Below are positions 1,893 through 37,645 of a DNA stretch of 38,216 bases, piece by piece; within the stretch, counting starts at the first letter, position 1, and every line of letters starts with the position of its first letter. The stretch is from positions 1 to 38,216 of the forward strand of contig DHFM01000052.1 of assembly GCA_002400405.1 (NCBI GenBank), written 5' to 3'. This DNA comes from Candidatus Moranbacteria bacterium UBA4824. Lineage in GTDB: Bacteria > Patescibacteriota > Minisyncoccia > Moranbacterales > UBA2206. Both the position numbers and the translations under genes were made by a program. The notes beneath the pieces were generated by a model. It was given only the letters and a program-made list of their open reading frames with translations, had not been told where the DNA came from and did not search any database.

Positions 1893-3251
1893 ATGTATAT
1901 AAAATGCTATAATTTAACTATGGAAACTTTCATTTTGCCTTACAAGAAAAAACTTATCTTTCTCGCTCTCGGCGCTGAATCCGCTGGGAATTTTTCTGTT
2001 TTTAATAATGGAAAGATTTATTTTTCTGAAAACTTCGACGACCTCTTAGAAGAAAATAATTGGATAAAATATCAAGCATCAATTTTAAAATATTTGAGAG
2101 ATAATAAAATTAAGCCACAAATTATCTTAACTGATCTTCATCCCCTTTTCAAAACTACTCTTTGGGGAGAAAAGCTCGCCAAAAAATTTAGCGCCAAATT
2201 TGTTCAAGTCCAACATCACCACGCTCACATTTTCTCCGCCATTGGAGACAAAATTTTGCATAATGCTTCCTACTTACTACCTCCTACTTTCTACGGTATT
2301 ACTATGGACGGAACTGGTCTTGGAACGGATGAAAAAATTTGGGGAGGAGAGACTTTCAAAGTAGTAAGTAGCAAGAATAAAGTAGAAAGCATTGAAAGAA
2401 TTGGATATTTGGAAAATCAGGTTATGATTGGTGGGGATTTAGCAATAAAAGAACCTGCTAGAATGCTAATAAGTATTTTATATAAAGTTTTTTCTAATTC
2501 CTCCTCTCCCTTTGGGAGAGGATGTCGCGTACTCGCGACAGGAGAGGGTACAAGCAAAATACAACACAAAAAACTTATCTATAATTTCGTCAAAAAATAT
2601 TATACCAAAAACGAATTTGAACTTATCTACAATCAGCTTCAACAAAATTTCAACTGCCTCGAAACTTCTAGCACTGGGAGAGTTTTGGATGCTGTTTCAT
2701 TTTTATTGGGTTTTTGTGAAAACAAAAGAAATTACAAACACGAGCCAATCGATCTCTTGGAAAAAAATTCGACTAAGCCTTATTCTGAATTAAAACCAAG
2801 AATAATAATTTCAGAAAATAAATATGTCCTAGATACTACCTACTTATTTAATTACATAATTAAATACTTACACAAAAGAGATAAGTATCGCCTCACCACC
2901 ACCGCCCAACTTTATATTGCGGAAGGATTATATGAAATAGTAAAATTATCTTGTCATCCTGAGCGAAGTCCGTACTCGGACGAAGTCGAAGCCTGCCTGC
3001 CGGCGAGGCAGGGATCTACTAAATATTATAACCAACCAAACTACAACGCAGATTCTTCGACTTCCCCTTCGACTCGTTGCACTCGCTCAGGGTTCGCTCA
3101 GAATGACATATTTATCGCTGGTGGCTTAGCTAATAATAAAATAATTTCCGATTTTTTTATTTCTAAAGGCGCTTACGCTTCCAAGATAATCCCCCTCGGC
3201 GACGCCGGACTTTCTTTCGGGCAAATTATTTATTATCTTTTGCAAAAATAA
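1893..3251 (+). CDS. hypF: HypF-like protein, C-terminal (Kae1/ASKHA-like) half only; acylphosphatase, Zn-finger and YrdC domains absent
   Basis: 452 aa. Has LALGAE, DLHP....VQHHHAH, MDGTGLGTDEKIWGGE and a C-terminal AGGLANNK. The start could be the ATG at 1920. Contains two GC-rich palindromic in-frame inserts. Confidence 0.6.
   Translation: MYIKCYNLTMETFILPYKKKLIFLALGAESAGNFSVFNNGKIYFSENFDDLLEENNWIKYQASILKYLRDNKIKPQIILTDLHPLFKTTLWGEKLAKKFSAKFVQVQHHHAHIFSAIGDKILHNASYLLPPTFYGITMDGTGLGTDEKIWGGETFKVVSSKNKVESIERIGYLENQVMIGGDLAIKEPARMLISILYKVFSNSSSPFGRGCRVLATGEGTSKIQHKKLIYNFVKKYYTKNEFELIYNQLQQNFNCLETSSTGRVLDAVSFLLGFCENKRNYKHEPIDLLEKNSTKPYSELKPRIIISENKYVLDTTYLFNYIIKYLHKRDKYRLTTTAQLYIAEGLYEIVKLSCHPERSPYSDEVEACLPARQGSTKYYNQPNYNADSSTSPSTRCTRSGFAQNDIFIAGGLANNKIISDFFISKGAYASKIIPLGDAGLSFGQIIYYLLQK
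2503..2548. repeat. GC-rich nested palindrome inside the hypF-like ORF
   Basis: cctctccc-ttt-gggagagg, then tgtcgcg-tac-tcgcgaca, then ggagaggg. It encodes SSPFGRGCRVLATGEG within an otherwise AT-rich gene. Confidence 0.55.
2952..3108. repeat. TGTCAT-ended palindromic element (family E) inserted in-frame in the hypF-like ORF
   Basis: Termini tgtcatcctgagcgaa (2952-2967) and ttcgctcagaatgaca (3093-3108) are inverted repeats. Inside are gaagtcgaag/cttcgacttc pairs and a gcctgcctgccggcgaggcagg hairpin. It encodes CHPERS...SGFAQND between conserved HypF blocks. Confidence 0.7.
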
Positions 3252-5894: not shown

Positions 5895-5910
5895 AGTTAC
5901 AATAAATTGG

Positions 5911-5979
5911 TGTCATGCTGAATTTATTTCAGCATCTGGTTTTTTACACATAAGATCCTGAAACGAGTTCAGGATGACA
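5911..5979. repeat. TGTCAT-ended palindromic element (family E, short form)
   Basis: tgtcatgctgaa (5911-5922) versus ttcaggatgaca (5968-5979). Internal hairpins are atgctgaa/ttcagcat and atcctgaa/ttcaggat. The right arm supplies the last codons and the stop (5969-5971) of hypC. Confidence 0.65.
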
Positions 5980-6172
5980 AAAGATAAGTTTCAATTTCTC
6001 TCACATTATCTTTCCCCATTTTTTCAATCGCAAAACCAGCGTGCACCATCACATAATCTCCAACCTTAACATCCACAATACTAATATTTATTTCTTTTTT
6101 GACGCCTTGAAAATCAACTTCGGCTAGTTGATTTTTTATTTTTATAATTTTTCCTGGGATTGCTAAACACAT
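5969..6172 (-). CDS. hypC: hydrogenase assembly chaperone HypC/HupF
   Basis: 67 aa starting with the canonical MCLAIPGKI. Confidence 0.85.
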   Translation of the reverse strand: MCLAIPGKIIKIKNQLAEVDFQGVKKEINISIVDVKVGDYVMVHAGFAIEKMGKDNVREIETYLLSS

Positions 6173-6427
6173 TTACCCTATTAAGTAAGATTTGAGCCTA
6201 CTTTTTATATATCGCTTGCCGTAAATAGTTTTTAGATACTTTTCTCTTTTAGTAGCATCTTGTTGATTTAGGCAAGCTTCATAATATATAAGGCTTAGTG
6301 GTGTTCTATTTTTCGTAGAAAGCACTAGCCCCTTGTTATGTTGCTCAAATCTTAATTTTAAATTTTTAGTATAACCTACATAATTTTTGTCATCTTTTTT
6401 ACTTTTCAAAACATAGACATACTGCAT
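6173..6427 (-). CDS. small GIY-YIG nuclease family protein (UPF0213/YhbQ-like)
   Basis: 84 aa. Has YVYVL...YVGYT...RFEQHN...REKYLK, which covers the GIY, YIG, Arg and Glu positions. Its stop abuts the hypC start with 0 nt spacer. Confidence 0.8.
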   Translation of the reverse strand: MQYVYVLKSKKDDKNYVGYTKNLKLRFEQHNKGLVLSTKNRTPLSLIYYEACLNQQDATKREKYLKTIYGKRYIKSRLKSYLIG

Positions 6428-6466
6428 GCAAATTTGGCTAAAAATTTAAAATTTACTTAATAGGGT
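6175..6466. mobile_element. TIR-bounded GIY-YIG mini-cassette
   Basis: accctattaagtaa (6175-6188) and ttacttaatagggt (6453-6466) form a perfect 14-bp inverted repeat bracketing the GIY-YIG ORF. The right TIR encodes the last residues and stop (HPIK*) of ORF 6453-7490. Confidence 0.7.
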
Positions 6467-7490
6467 GAATTTTTCCCTTCCCTATCTTCTCCTTATTCCT
6501 CACCAATCTCGCCACTTCTCTTTCGCTAAGCACATAATCCAAATATTTTCCTAAATTTTTCTTTTTATAAATTTTAGAGGAAATAAAAAATATCACAATA
6601 TTATCTGGATTTATTTTTTCATGTTTAGCATATTCTATTTTAATCTTTCTTATTATTTCATCTTCTAAATTTTCTTTTTCAACTTCAACAATTTTTTCAA
6701 AACCCAATTCAGTCAATAACTTTTTCAAATTTTTTTCGGGCGTAATATCGGTCAATTGTTTTTTTATTTTTTCTTTTATGTCAATATCCAAAACAGCCAC
6801 CGAAAATTTTTCAAGATTATCCAAATCATCAATTATTTTCACATAATCATTTTTGTCTGTGAGTGCTCCTGTCGGACAAACTTCAATACATTTTCCGCAA
6901 AAACTACAGTCCAGAACTTTTTCATAAGGCGTCCCAACCACCACTGCGCTTCCACGATGATTAAAACCAAACTTTTTTTCTGGGCAAATATTAATACATC
7001 TTCGACATTCAATACAAAGTTCAGAGTTTCTTGATATACAAGGATTCTCATTTTCCACCACCACTCGTGACCAATTATCGCGAATTAAATCCAACTCTTC
7101 TTGTCCAGTTATTTCTCCTTTCCTTGGAATGAAATGAAAGTTTTCAATTTTATATTCCAACGCCAATTTCTGCAGTTCGCACATTAGATTTTTTTTGCAA
7201 GTGGCGCATTTTCCCGCGTGATCCGCCCAAAGTAGTTCCAGATTTATTCTTCTTGCTTTATTTATATCTTCACTTTCAGTAATCACTTCTAAACCTTCGC
7301 AAACCTTTGCCGTGCAAGAAGTAGTTAATCTTCCACCAATTTCCACCAAACATAACCGACAAACCGCGCCTCGCAAAAGATCTTCAAAAGCACAAAGCGT
7401 GGGAATTCTAATTCCTTCTCGTCGACACACATCCAAAACAGTTTCGTTTTCTTTGGCTTCGTAAATTTTATTGTTTATTTTAATATCCAT
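6453..7490 (-). CDS. HydA/HndD-like iron-sulfur protein: 2Fe-2S, His-ligated 4Fe-4S and two 4Fe-4S ferredoxin domains, plus a degenerate truncated remnant of the [FeFe]-hydrogenase H-domain
   Basis: N-terminus matches the NuoG/HydA F-domain (C..C..C, HAGKCATCKKNLMCELQ, CIECRRCINICP, CSFCGKCIEVCPTGAL). The C-terminal 130 aa align by eye to CpI blocks (LGFEKI, NPDNIVIFFISSKIYKKK versus DPKNVFTVTVMPCTSKKFE, LDYVLSEREVARLV versus IDAVITTRELAKMI). It lacks TSCCPGW, the MPC Cys and the CxxGGCxxGGGQP motif. Confidence 0.7.
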   Translation of the reverse strand: MDIKINNKIYEAKENETVLDVCRREGIRIPTLCAFEDLLRGAVCRLCLVEIGGRLTTSCTAKVCEGLEVITESEDINKARRINLELLWADHAGKCATCKKNLMCELQKLALEYKIENFHFIPRKGEITGQEELDLIRDNWSRVVVENENPCISRNSELCIECRRCINICPEKKFGFNHRGSAVVVGTPYEKVLDCSFCGKCIEVCPTGALTDKNDYVKIIDDLDNLEKFSVAVLDIDIKEKIKKQLTDITPEKNLKKLLTELGFEKIVEVEKENLEDEIIRKIKIEYAKHEKINPDNIVIFFISSKIYKKKNLGKYLDYVLSEREVARLVRNKEKIGKGKIHPIK

Positions 7491-7579: not shown

Positions 7580-8862
7580 ATGTTTTTTGTTATTGCATCT
7601 CGAAACGCCGTCCCCGCAAATTTTCCCAAGGGGCAAAAAGTCGTGTTGTCGAGCGTCCATAAAATATCTTCGACCGCTGTTTTATCTCGATCGGAAATTT
7701 TTCCATCACGAAATCTTTTTGCGATTTCCCAAAGCCTGAAAGTTCCTTCTCGGCACGGCACGCATTTTCCGCAAGATTCTCGCCGAAAAAAATCTGTCCA
7801 AGAAATTAACAAGTCATGAATGTTGACACTTTTGTCCACCACTAAAATTGAGCCTGAACCCATTTGTACGGACAGGTCGCGACCTGTCCCTACACAAAAT
7901 TCCATTTTTGCTTTTAGCTCTTTTTCTAAGAGGAGTTTTCCACAAGCGCCACCAATTTGCGCAAACCAAAACTCTTTGCCTTTTTTTATCCCGCCAGCAT
8001 ATTGGTCAATTAATTTTCTCACATTAATTCCTGTTGGTGCTTCATATATTCCTGGTTTTGCCACAGCGCCACTCAAAATGAAAAGCTTTGTTCCAGGGGA
8101 ATTTTTTGAACCAATGCGCGCAAATCTTTCTCCACCATTAGAAATTATCCAGGGAATATTAGAAATTGTTTCTGTATTACTCACGGCAGTTGGACAACCA
8201 AAAAGTCCAGCCTCAGTTGGAAATGGCGGACGAATTTTTGGCTCTCCGCGATTACTTTCAATGGAATTTATCAGCGCCGTTTCCTCTCCGCAAATATATG
8301 CGCCAGCACCAGAATATATTTCAATTTCCAGATTATAATTTGAACCAAGGATATTTTCTCCCCAATATTTTTTTTCTTTCGCTTGCGAAATTGCAATTTC
8401 CAAAATTTCTTTTTGTTTTTCATAATTACCATTAATATAAATGTAGGCTTTTTTTGCTTCGATAGAAAGTGCAGAAATTATTATTCCCTCCAAGAGAAGA
8501 TGCGGATTATTATCCACTATCAATCTATCCTTATATGTCCCTGGTTCTGATTCTTCTAAGTTACAGATAAAATATTTTTTACCCTGTGGAGTATCCCGAC
8601 TTGTCGGGATAATTTTGTAATCAAAATTTACTCCACAGGGTGAATTCCTTGCCACCATCTCCAATTTATCCCCAGTTGGAAATCCCGCGCCTCCCCGCCC
8701 GCGAAGTCCAGATTTTTTAATCTCCAAAATAGCCTCCTCCGGATTCATTTTAAAAATAAATTTTTCCAAAGCCATGTATCCGCCAACACAAATATAATCC
8801 TCTATTCTTAGTGGATTAATCTTGCCCCAGTACTTTGTTAACACTTTTAAATTATCAGTCAC
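7567..8862 (-). CDS. NuoF/HydB/HoxF-like NADH-binding FMN and 4Fe-4S flavoprotein subunit
   Basis: 431 aa with a GTG start. Has GLRGRGGAGFPTG, CN.EESEPGTYKDR, GAGAYICGEETAL and ESCGKCVPCREG. Confidence 0.88.
   Translation of the reverse strand: MTDNLKVLTKYWGKINPLRIEDYICVGGYMALEKFIFKMNPEEAILEIKKSGLRGRGGAGFPTGDKLEMVARNSPCGVNFDYKIIPTSRDTPQGKKYFICNLEESEPGTYKDRLIVDNNPHLLLEGIIISALSIEAKKAYIYINGNYEKQKEILEIAISQAKEKKYWGENILGSNYNLEIEIYSGAGAYICGEETALINSIESNRGEPKIRPPFPTEAGLFGCPTAVSNTETISNIPWIISNGGERFARIGSKNSPGTKLFILSGAVAKPGIYEAPTGINVRKLIDQYAGGIKKGKEFWFAQIGGACGKLLLEKELKAKMEFCVGTGRDLSVQMGSGSILVVDKSVNIHDLLISWTDFFRRESCGKCVPCREGTFRLWEIAKRFRDGKISDRDKTAVEDILWTLDNTTFCPLGKFAGTAFRDAITKNILTF
8582..8640. repeat. palindromic element inserted in-frame in the nuoF-like gene
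   Basis: ccctgtggagta (8582-8593) pairs with tactccacaggg (8629-8640), with an inner atcccgac/gtcgggat hairpin. It encodes PCGVNFDYKIIPTSRDTPQG, an extra loop relative to E. coli NuoF between the GxGGAGF and CNADExEPG motifs. Confidence 0.6.
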
Positions 8863-12892: not shown

Positions 12893-13035
12893 ACCCTGTT
12901 AAATAAGATTTGATTCTCTTTTTGAAAAATAGCTTCTTTAAAAATAAAATGTCTATATTAAAATAATTTCCATCCAAGTCAATTCAAATCTTAATTTTAA
13001 ATTTTTATAAAAATTTAAAATTTATTTAACAGGGT
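12893..13035. mobile_element. degraded, ORF-less derivative of the GIY-YIG mini-cassette (MITE-like)
   Basis: accctgttaaataa (12893-12906) and ttatttaacagggt (13022-13035) form a perfect 14-bp TIR. Both ends extend the homology to 6175-6466 (gatttga... on the left, aaaaatttaaaattta... on the right). An internal caaatcttaattttaaattttta block matches the GIY-YIG coding region. The right TIR supplies HPVK* to the GT2 gene. Confidence 0.7.
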
Positions 13036-14799: not shown

Positions 14800-14907
14800 T
14801 GTCATCCTCGCGAATGCGGGGATCTAGTCTCTTAACTTATTTGCTTCTAATGATTAACCCATTTCACAAAACTTCTTCACTAGATTCCCGCGTTCGCGGG
14901 AATGACA
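14800..14907. repeat. TGTCAT-ended inverted-repeat element (family E, intergenic copy)
   Basis: tgtcatcctcgcgaatgcggggatctagt (14800-14828) versus actagattcccgcgttcgcgggaatgaca (14879-14907). These are roughly 29-bp imperfect TIRs. Confidence 0.7.
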
Positions 14908-17776: not shown

Positions 17777-17938
17777 GCCAATTTTGTCTGCGAACATAGT
17801 GAGCAGGAACAAAATTGAGCATCCCGCACCAATTCACAAACTAATTTTATATTATCTAAAAACTAAGCCGTAGGCGATTCCGTGAAATAATCATTATTTT
17901 ACAGTAAATCTAATTCGGAATTGGTGCGGGATAGCCCC
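17777..17938 (-). repeat. repeated ~160-nt leader element D1 with a 14-bp GC-rich TIR
   Basis: tcccgcaccaattc (17822-17835) pairs with gaattggtgcggga (17918-17931). It is homologous along its length to 37484-37645, including gctcaatttt and aaaattggcATG next to the start codon. Confidence 0.7.
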
Positions 17939-20474: not shown

Positions 20475-20584
20475 CCTACGAATTACGAATCTGTACAAAT
20501 GTACTAATGTGAACTGAATAATTTTTACTGCTTTATTAAATTATTCGTAATTCGTACATTCGTAAATATTCGTAATTCGTAAGG
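20475..20584. repeat. 110-bp TACGAAT inverted-repeat element, copy A1
   Basis: cctacgaattacgaat...gtactaatgtgaa...attattcgtaattcgtacattcgta...attcgtaattcgtaagg. It ends 1 nt from the rpsZ stop codon. Confidence 0.8.
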
Positions 20585-20585
20585 A

Positions 20586-20771
20586 CTACCAACTTGCTTT
20601 TTTAACTCCAGGTATTTGTCCGGTAATAGCCAACTCTCTAAAACATATTCGGCAGATATCAAATTGTCTCATATATCCATGTTTTCTTCCGCACTTCCAA
20701 CAACGTCTCACGATTCTCGTCGAAAATTTAGGTTTTTTTCGGGCTCTTGCTTCTGTTGATTTCTTCGCCAT
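20586..20771 (-). CDS. rpsZ: 30S ribosomal protein S14 type Z (zinc-binding)
   Basis: 61 aa. Has CWKCGR...CRICFRE and a C-terminal SW. Confidence 0.93.
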
Positions 20772-22998: not shown

Positions 22999-23109
22999 CT
23001 TACGAATTACGAATTCTTACGAATGTACTAATGTGAGTTAAAAATAATTTTTGTATTTTATTAAATTATTCGTAATTCGTACATTCGTACTGATTCGTAA
23101 TTCGTAAGG
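22999..23109. repeat. 110-bp TACGAAT inverted-repeat element, copy A2
   Basis: Identical by eye over about 110 bp to 27357-27468. It ends 1 nt from the rpsC stop codon. Confidence 0.85.
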
Positions 23110-23110
23110 A

Positions 23111-23790: not shown

Positions 23791-23903
23791 CCTTACGAAT
23801 TACGAATTTTTACGAATGTACTAATGTGAATTGAATAATCTTTTGCTGTTTTATTAAATTATTCGTAATTCGTACATTCGTACCGATTCGTAATTCGTAA
23901 GAG
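23791..23903. repeat. 110-bp TACGAAT inverted-repeat element, copy A3
   Basis: ccttacgaattacgaatttttacgaatgtac...gtacattcgtaccgattcgtaattcgtaag. It ends about 4 nt from the rplV stop codon. Confidence 0.8.
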
Positions 23904-23907
23904 TTAT

Positions 23908-27356: not shown

Positions 27357-27468
27357 CCTTACGAATTACGAATTCTTACGAATGTACTAATGTGAGTTAA
27401 AAATAATTTTTGTATTTTATTAAATTATTCGTAATTCGTACATTCGTACTGATTCGTAATTCGTAAGG
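27357..27468. repeat. 110-bp TACGAAT inverted-repeat element, copy A4
   Basis: Identical by eye to A2. It ends 2 nt from the rpsJ stop codon. Confidence 0.85.
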
Positions 27469-27470
27469 GG

Positions 27471-29180: not shown

Positions 29181-29264
29181 ATCCCCCACCACTTTTTAGC
29201 TTTTTTCTAAATAAATTTACTTTATTTTAGCCCACCTAGCTTAAGTAAAAAAGTGGTGGGGGAT
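29181..29264. repeat. 84-bp element with a perfect 17-bp inverted repeat in the tuf upstream region
   Basis: atcccccaccacttttt (29181-29197) pairs with aaaaagtggtgggggat (29248-29264). Confidence 0.7.
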
Positions 29265-37483: not shown

Positions 37484-37645
37484 GCCAATTTTTCCTGCGA
37501 GCGATAGCGAGTAGCTGAAAAATTGAGCACCCCGCACCAATTCGCATATGAAATTAATGTGTATTTATAATTTAAGCCGTTAGGCGAATCCGCGCGTAAT
37601 TCTTTCTGTAATATAAATTTAAGTCGGAATTTGGTGCGGGGTCAC
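37484..37645 (-). repeat. repeated ~160-nt leader element D2 with a GC-rich TIR
   Basis: ccccgcaccaattc (37530-37543) pairs with gaatttggtgcgggg (37627-37641, 1-nt bulge). Homologous to 17777-17938. Confidence 0.7.

Follow-up and report, generated by a model that had tools for sequence, protein, structure and literature searches.

A 292-nucleotide GIY-YIG nuclease cassette with a three-way-junction fold and gene-less relatives in a Moranbacteria genome

The question of how short palindromic repeats spread through bacterial genomes, including those resembling repetitive extragenic palindromic (REP) sequences, Rickettsia palindromic elements (RPEs) and CGTC repeats, has only been partly answered, mainly for REPs associated with RAYT. 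CGTC-tagged REPs were reported without a dedicated transposase (Di Nocera et al., 2013, PMC3733652). These same repeats, also described as NTS/SRM hairpin repeats, often flank on both sides the genes of their cognate Ssn nucleases, single-domain GIY-YIG proteins of the cd10448 family with ~94 amino acids (aa) (Di Nocera et al., 2013, PMC3733652; Chenal et al., 2025, Nat Commun, PMC11893778). Ssn nucleases cut single-stranded DNA (ssDNA) only, on one strand and a few bases 5' of the hairpin; their authors likened the architecture to an insertion sequence and to RAYT/REP (Chenal et al., 2025, PMC11893778). For SsnA and the NTS repeats in Neisseria, a role in restricting or shaping ssDNA that enters in natural transformation, or in acting at replication forks, has been proposed. 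The 2025 work tied one repeat class to a GIY-YIG nuclease, and neither movement nor a master copy was shown (PMC11893778). A literature search for inverted-repeat-bounded GIY-YIG cassettes in bacteria returned nothing beyond these two papers. Here we describe such a cassette in a 38,216-nucleotide (nt) stretch of Candidatus Moranbacteria bacterium UBA4824 (GenBank assembly GCA_002400405.1, contig DHFM01000052.1; hereafter the window), which corresponds to contig C58 of a 979 kb source genome in 77 contigs (label G000). The cassette is a discrete 292-nt unit that carries an 84-aa GIY-YIG gene and is wedged between a hydA-like Fe-S protein gene (the hydA relic) and hypC.

In the reading that we favour, this unit is the complete coding member of a group of small structured mobile elements in Patescibacteria, and its nuclease probably cuts the element's own folded single strand and so starts movement. 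The likeness to Ssn is considerable, comprising a small single-domain GIY-YIG protein, bracketing cognate repeats that recur throughout the genome, and co-diversification of repeat and nuclease. Unlike the Ssn arrangement of a local hairpin on each side, however, the cassette has one stem spanning the whole gene and two inner, partly coding stems, its length is fixed at 292-293 nt, its short copies can lie in frame within genes, and its movement is documented by filled and empty sites. The cassette nuclease is also separated from the Ssn-like proteins by a deep split with long branches (support 100/99) between a 24-row SRM-flanked clade and a 50-row class, in a comparison where locally SRM-flanked proteins stood in for SsnA of Neisseria. 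A GTCAT hairpin lies within 130 nt of 21 of 25 proteins of the SRM-flanked class but of only 1 of 52 in the class of the cassette. Neither such a hairpin nor the SRM motif HGTCWYN(0-2)YYVSBRHN(0-5)WNVSBRGN(0-2)RNCYNB was found within 130 nt of the cassette gene, the bracket of which is ACCCT...AGGGT.

The folded cassette and its gene-less copies

A first-pass annotation of the window had described a perfect 14-bp inverted repeat bracketing the GIY-YIG open reading frame (ORF), a stop codon abutting hypC, and a right repeat encoding the end of the upstream ORF, and all three features are present. The repeat reads ACCCTATTAAGTAA at 6175-6188, with its exact reverse complement at 6453-6466, and extends to TTTACCCT...AGGGTGAA (6172-6469) if one mismatch is allowed. 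The nuclease stop codon (6173-6175) adjoins the hypC start (6172) with a spacer of zero bases, while the C-terminus of the Fe-S protein, ...KIHPIK*, has its last codons and stop within the right repeat arm. Four matches to the 14-mer (up to two mismatches) occur in the window compared to 0.41 expected, a number reached in 0 of 100 shuffles, and the two matches outside the cassette form a second inverted pair at 12893/13022. More generally, perfect inverted 14-mers with arms 50-400 nt apart account for 26 word pairs in the window (~10 places), whereas 200 dinucleotide shuffles gave a mean of 0.26, an enrichment of ~100-fold.

Folded as ssDNA, the 298-nt stretch forms a three-way junction of -48 kcal/mol, compared to -21.7 +/- 3.2 kcal/mol for shuffled sequences (z = -8.1). 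The order along the gene strand is P1a, P3a, the leader with the ATG and codons 1-19, P3b, P2a, codons 29-76, P2b and P1b, with zero unpaired bases between the stems P1, P2 and P3. P3 (16 bp) pairs the 5' leader with the TKNLKL codons, and P2 (11 bp) pairs the RFE(Q) codons with the RLKS codons. The reading frame is woven into a conserved fold, which goes beyond two inverted ends alone. Stem arms are near-invariant in nucleotides among cassettes whose proteins are 74-100% identical, and codons 19-25 each use a single codon in 10 cassettes where neighbouring codons use 2-4. The bases that do vary in P1 change in both arms together (TA/TG/CG at positions 5-6 and G/A at position 11). Two compensatory changes are seen in P2, from GAGC/GCTC to GAGG/CCTC and from AAGA/TCTT to ACGA/TCGT, the latter synonymous on both sides, and a more distant cassette (L065) has a wholly different 14-bp complementary pair at the P2 position. 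No Rfam family matched the window at gathering thresholds; the fold therefore does not belong to an RNA family described so far.

The first-pass annotation had regarded the gene as a discrete mobile unit with defined ends and had suggested a genome-wide search for further copies. Its reading is supported, as the two outcomes that it had named as refuting (a lack of other copies and empty sites, or a match lying in a larger unrelated repeat) were both checked and proved not to apply. The terminus motif ACCCYRTKRARTA has 66 copies in the genome that form 31 inverted pairs, or units. The repeat marks the ends of elements of a defined family and is not a piece of a larger unrelated repeat. These units fall into size classes of 61-64 nt (11 copies), 83-98 nt, 143-153 nt (5 copies) and 292 nt, the last being the cassette, which is the sole gene-bearing unit. 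Copies of 61-64 nt consist of P1 and two small hairpins. Those of 143-153 nt retain the P2 and P3 stem sequences of the cassette plus several bases beyond them and are therefore regarded as internal-deletion derivatives, a relation read from the shared stems and not from global alignment. The derivative at 12893-13035 gives the upstream glycosyltransferase gene its end IHPVK*, which can be compared to the IHPIK* supplied by the cassette. Six copies of 61-64 nt sit in frame inside genes, such as the copy in the NuoF-like gene, an insert that is missing from the orthologue in 17 of 17 other genomes with an alignment across the site.

The same organization recurs in other cassettes. Two more are present in the source genome, on contigs C15 and C26 (Table 1), and are of near-equal length despite only 46-53% protein identity to the window cassette. 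Each of the three has its own ends and its own family of short copies, and the end type tracks the protein clade in a tree built from 74 local GIY-YIG proteins. The only coding copy seen for a fourth short-copy family (CCCGCAC...) comes from a different genome (L059, ends CCCCGCACTAACTTTCATT), and in three congeners (L012, L018, L019) members of this family are present at the hydA-relic/hypC junction.

Filled and empty sites among relatives

Relatives lacking the insertion, a comparison that the first-pass annotation had proposed, do exist. At the hydA-relic/hypC junction, 6 of 8 congeners have no GIY-YIG cassette, and nor does G017; in G007 this junction is a clean empty site (...GGGAAGATTAAAATGTAAATTTATGTGT), and the remaining cassette-free junctions hold unrelated inverted-repeat elements. 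Two congeners (G003 and G004) carry a cassette at this junction that is 94-95% identical to that of G000, whereas the flanks are 64-86% identical (75-84% over the adjacent 100 nt), and the step in identity falls exactly at the cassette ends. Judged by these identities, the cassette arrived recently relative to its flanks, and because the drop is so sharp there is no sign of flank co-conversion. Cassettes that are 93-98% identical are found at four different sites in four species, the other sites being G003:C34, G001:C30 and G004:C64, and G000 is empty at the site corresponding to the last of these. Two G004 copies (G004:C43 487-780 and G004:C64; L034 and L060) are 98.3% identical and have in common one 2-nt insertion that truncates the nuclease, indicating that a defective copy reached a second site. 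Outside the genus, the cassettes nearest to that of G000 come from other families of the order (86% and 82%), while one congener has a lineage of only 76%; horizontal spread is indicated by the closer match across families. In another lineage a cassette lies between rplK and rplA, and a further one has a tyrosine recombinase gene on one side and lepA on the other, here too with a spacer of zero bases. In a metagenome contig (L115/L116 1227-2726) the cassette-adjacent lepA has a PDDEXK_3 nuclease domain between the halves of its GTPase domain.

Across 201 genomes of the order, those with a cassette hold a mean of 10.2 additional termini compared to 2.0 in those without (p = 1e-6; p = 2e-5 without the cassette's own genus), by a Mann-Whitney test that ignores the relatedness of the genomes.

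The clearest view of an insertion comes from the glycosyltransferase junction that holds the 143-nt derivative, which is filled in G000 and G008 and empty in G001, G005 and G006. The filled junction reads GAAATTC[ACCCT...AGGGT]AAAAAATAAAA and the empty one GAAATTAAAAAATAAAA in G006 and GAAATTGAAAAATAAAA in G001. This is the cleanest case and fits a plain insertion of 5'-CACCCT...AGGGT-3' at ATT^AAA (GAAATT^AAAAAA in G006) with zero duplicated bases; a target site duplication was not found at any of the four filled/empty pairs compared. All six lineage-A cassettes have AAAATTC on the left and AAA on the right, and the four unrelated insertion sites have in common only a short AAATT^AAA-like context. 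Copies in G000 are flanked by TTC...AAA or its complement and never by a perfect TTC...GAA, an asymmetry that amounts to one mismatch at the P1 base on one strand. When written as TTC...AAA, 21 of 22 G000 copies are co-oriented with neighbouring genes; the elements agree with GC skew in 19 of 23, and the informative cases are few for a choice between replication and transcription direction. TTC...AAA in the gene sense was considered as a general rule, which holds in G000 and fails in other cassette lineages. Elements of different families also seem to replace each other at one spot, as at the glycosyltransferase junction of G002:C25 (L106), where a 63-nt ACCCT element, joined at AAAATTC and AAAAAC, has replaced the left portion of an element of the CCCCGCAC type, which is whole in G007.

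The host genes around the cassette also bear on what the insertion did. The first-pass annotation had it that the insertion replaced the native 3' end of the upstream gene, which is true of the last 2-4 codons, all that the element supplies; cassette-free relatives have Fe-S proteins ending in GKIKM*, GKIHL* and similar. The protein has 2Fe-2S, NuoG-type and two [4Fe-4S] domains by Pfam, with no H-cluster domain found, and its 343-368-aa form is common to all congeners, compared to 465-600 aa in other genera. Therefore the cassette did not cause the truncation to 345 aa.

Table 1. Features of the cassette, its surroundings and related elements. Positions refer to the window unless another contig of the source genome (G000) is named.
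Feature	Position	Strand	Sequence or ends	Description
Complete cassette, 292 nt	6175-6466	-	gene strand ACCCTATTAAGTAA...TTACTTAATAGGGT	Flanks TTC and AAA
Terminal stem P1, low-coordinate arm	6175-6188			Encodes YLIG, nuclease C-terminal residues
Terminal stem P1, high-coordinate arm	6453-6466			Encodes HPIK and stop of upstream Fe-S gene
P2, first arm	6187-6197		plus strand AAGATTTGAGC	Gene strand encodes RLKS near the C-terminus; inverted repeat I6; in the minimum-energy fold
P2, second arm	6343-6353			Gene strand encodes RFE(Q) of the conserved LxxRxxxH motif
P3, first arm	6354-6369			Gene strand encodes TKNLKL; 16-nt perfect inverted repeat I3
P3, second arm	6438-6453			In the nuclease gene 5' leader
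GIY-YIG nuclease gene, 84 aa	6427-6173	-		Pfam PF01541, E = 4.3e-15
hypC, downstream host gene	6172-5969	-		Followed by hypD, hypE
Fe-S protein gene, 345 aa, upstream host gene	7490-6453	-		HydA/NuoG-type N-terminal domains only
NuoF-like gene	8862-7567	-		
NuoE-like gene	9425-8976	-		
61-nt short copy	8581-8641	-		In frame within the NuoF-like gene, adds ~18 residues
143-nt gene-less derivative	12893-13035	-		Stems P1, P2 and P3 kept, both loops shortened
84-nt gene-less element	29181-29264		ends ATCCCCCACCAC	Matches the C26 cassette ends
Fourth short-copy family (CCCGCAC...), 108-110 nt	17823-17930, 37531-37640		ends CCCGCACCAATT	
Third cassette, 293 nt	G000 C15 17746-18038		ends CCCCCACACCAATTATG	9 gene-less copies
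Second cassette, 292 nt	G000 C26 3950-4241		ends TTCATCCCCCACCAC	5 gene-less copies, including that at 29181-29264 of the window

Hairpins of the Ssn-associated kind are found in the same genome. A canonical Ssn-like paralogue (C50 6375-6680) is flanked by GTCAT hairpins, and the window contains inverted SRM/NTS-type hairpins at 14800-14827 (+) and 14880-14907 (-), the second of which, TGTCATTCCCGCGAACGCGGGAATCTAG, departs at a single base from the NTS consensus given for Neisseria in PMC11893778. The hypC-hypD spacer (5908-5972) is filled by two GTCAT-tagged hairpins in opposite orientation, and a HypF-like ORF (1893-3251) contains an in-frame block of GTCAT and GC-rich hairpin repeats at ~2950-3110, translated as ...SCHPERSPYSDEVEACLPARQGS.... 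Additionally, four elements with TACGAAT-heptamer arms (CTTACGAATTACGAAT...ATTCGTAATTCGTAAG) are present at ~20477-20590, 22999-23110, 23792-23905 and 27357-27470.

The nuclease, its likely role and the alternatives

The cassette protein is little more than a catalytic core. Pfam gives confident matches to GIY-YIG and T5orf172 and a weak match to MUG113 below the cut-off, all on the same core and none beyond it; NCBIfam gives no specific family and one weak match, also below the cut-off, to a group I intron endonuclease model. The AlphaFold2 model (mean pLDDT 92.6) is one compact beta-beta-alpha-beta-alpha-alpha domain, and at 84 aa there is no DNA-binding domain and no room for one. The best solved folds by Foldseek were 1zg2 (UPF0213 protein BH0048), the Slx1 nuclease domain and the catalytic domain of I-TevI, with a probability of 1.00 for the first two, and a sequence search of solved structures gave weak matches to the UPF0213 proteins 1ywl and 1zg2 (E about 0.002). 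The nuclease is thus similar in sequence and fold to UPF0213/YhbQ and to Slx1, a structure-specific nuclease of branched DNA. Residues Y3, Y5, Y16, G18, R26, H30, E50 and E62 are invariant in 34 relatives, and dN/dS ratios (nonsynonymous to synonymous substitution rates) of 0.04-0.22 place the protein under purifying selection. At E <= 1e-10 it matches 5766 protein clusters, the best 120 of which are nearly all 84 aa long, and by their source labels the close relatives come from Parcubacteria/Moranbacteria.

We infer that the nuclease is the agent of movement on four grounds: the nucleases diversify in step with their end types, the fold incorporates the reading frame, Ssn offers a precedent, and cassette-bearing genomes have more additional termini. 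The substrate would be ssDNA. The element may fold on a free single strand at a replication fork, in a transcription bubble or in incoming DNA, where the nuclease would bind the junction and a short unpaired tag and cut at the base of P1, as Ssn does at hairpin repeats. The same cut could mobilize or copy both the cassette and those gene-less derivatives that retain only the fold, with host ligation, replication or repair then sealing donor and target. Sealing would fall to such host functions because a hydrolytic nuclease is unable to join DNA ends.

This is also where the favoured reading is at its weakest, as a GIY-YIG nuclease has no activity for the rejoining or integration step, and several further observations weigh against it. 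The commonest short subfamilies (P1 = ACCCTRTGGARTA) have no stem-matched cassette in the 41 closest genomes with cassette ends read, and G002 holds 68 termini yet no close cassette. Between 8 and 20 termini are held by 11 of 170 cassette-less genomes, and extra copies are few in roughly half of the genomes with a cassette. Simple insertion fails to describe two of the sites, the NuoF copy being a net gain of 54 nt and the G004:C64 site having ~10 extra bases. Other cassette lineages show the opposite end polarity, with the deviation at the other end. The right ends of some cassettes elsewhere (L112, L113) have decayed, and many copies may therefore be immobile.

Comparison with established mobile elements helps to place the proposed mechanism. 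REPtrons and IS200/IS605 elements share with the cassette a gene with its own palindromes, many gene-less copies, insertion at a short motif without target duplication and, in all likelihood, recognition of ssDNA hairpins, but the cassette enzyme is a hydrolytic GIY-YIG nuclease and not an HUH tyrosine transposase capable of rejoining. Miniature inverted-repeat transposable elements and their autonomous insertion sequences similarly have terminal inverted repeats and internally deleted derivatives that share the ends of the coding element, whereas the cassette has no transposase (DDE, serine, tyrosine or HUH), its only ORF being GIY-YIG, produces no target duplication and is a coding element of just 292 nt. 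Tolerated in-frame insertion in protein genes, seen here for six copies, is reminiscent of RPEs in behaviour and not in membership: the cassette differs from RPEs and from CGTC REPs in its unrelated sequence, in forming a three-way junction in place of a simple hairpin and in having an identified candidate for the coding master copy. We raise more tentatively the possibility that these 292-293-nt cassettes are the smallest autonomous protein-coding mobile elements known, transposase-free and with several nuclease/fold pairs per 1-Mb genome, that much of the palindromic repeat load in Patescibacteria, in-frame repeats in essential proteins among it, stems from them, and that an 84-residue nuclease cuts the base of its own three-way junction.

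Among the alternatives, the one that survives best is that the protein is a domesticated Ssn-like host nuclease. The ACCCT repeats would then be its recognition sites and the bracket a relic of a mobile past, and the enzyme would restrict or shape incoming ssDNA in natural transformation or act at forks. The Ssn precedent and the strong purifying selection on the protein are in keeping with this, as are the usual presence of one intact cassette per genome and the intact genes of L112 and L113, where the ends have decayed. The cassette is, however, missing in most congeners and occupies differing sites among species, it is much younger than its flanks, broken copies exist and were duplicated (G003, G004), and short copies lie inside essential genes. 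This distribution is typical of selfish elements and not of a fixed host function, and for this reason we regard a purely host role as unlikely.

We consider it quite unlikely that the cassette is a free-standing gene for a homing endonuclease or an element of the rRNA intervening sequence type, whose nuclease would cut empty sites in double-stranded DNA and whose gene would be copied in by repair, with P1 acting mainly in RNA (for example as an RNase III site that separates messages) and the short copies being independent palindromes. GIY-YIG is a classical homing endonuclease fold, and the cassette shares its catalytic residues with enzymes such as I-TevI and Seg as well as their presence/absence at a conserved site. 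The occupation of one junction in three species by near-identical cassettes and the wedging of cassettes into tight operons with zero-base spacers would also suit such a unit. Unlike these enzymes, however, the cassette has neither a linker nor an intron, and 84 aa leave out the DNA-binding domain that I-TevI-type enzymes need. No co-conversion tract is seen in the flanks, and the four occupied sites are unrelated apart from their short shared context. A role in translation or RNA processing for the gene does not explain why the inner stems are kept in gene-less derivatives, and RNA cutting at in-frame copies would harm the genes that contain them. Cleavage of the empty site by the protein, the activity that the first-pass annotation had in mind and the classical route for homing, has less support than cutting of the element's own single strand in its folded form.

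Another enzyme, such as a RAYT-type or other transposase, might move the elements with the GIY-YIG gene merely riding along, an explanation that we hold to be improbable. It draws on the three Y1/RAYT genes of the genome and on the short subfamilies without a matching cassette, including the case of G002. A link to RAYT was considered and rejected, since each of these three PF01797 genes is flanked by its own unrelated hairpins, none of which has the ACCCT motif. The reading frame is moreover built into P1, P2 and P3 and does not simply occupy a loop, ends and short copies are specific to each of three GIY-YIG lineages, and no target duplication of the cut-and-paste type is seen. Finally, short inverted matches are common in AT-rich sequence, but the notion of an ordinary gene within a chance inverted repeat is refuted by the shuffle tests, the genome-wide copies, the covariation and the empty sites, and its probability is negligible.

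Implications for repeat spread in Patescibacteria

This cassette of an ultra-small bacterium of the candidate phyla radiation makes the question of repeat spread testable, given an exact-ended 292-nt unit with a conserved fold, gene-less derivatives, dated insertions and clean empty sites. It adds to the recently recognized partnership between small GIY-YIG nucleases and palindromic repeats, with unusually complete comparative evidence of mobility and a three-way-junction design. If the nuclease does cut a single strand that is defined by both sequence and structure, the range of site-specific ssDNA nuclease tools would be widened. Insertion of such elements can explain why neighbouring genes have odd C-terminal tails or inserts within them. 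Overall, the thousands of Patescibacteria genes annotated as "GIY-YIG nuclease family protein", represented by the 5766 clusters, are probably mobile cassettes rather than housekeeping genes.

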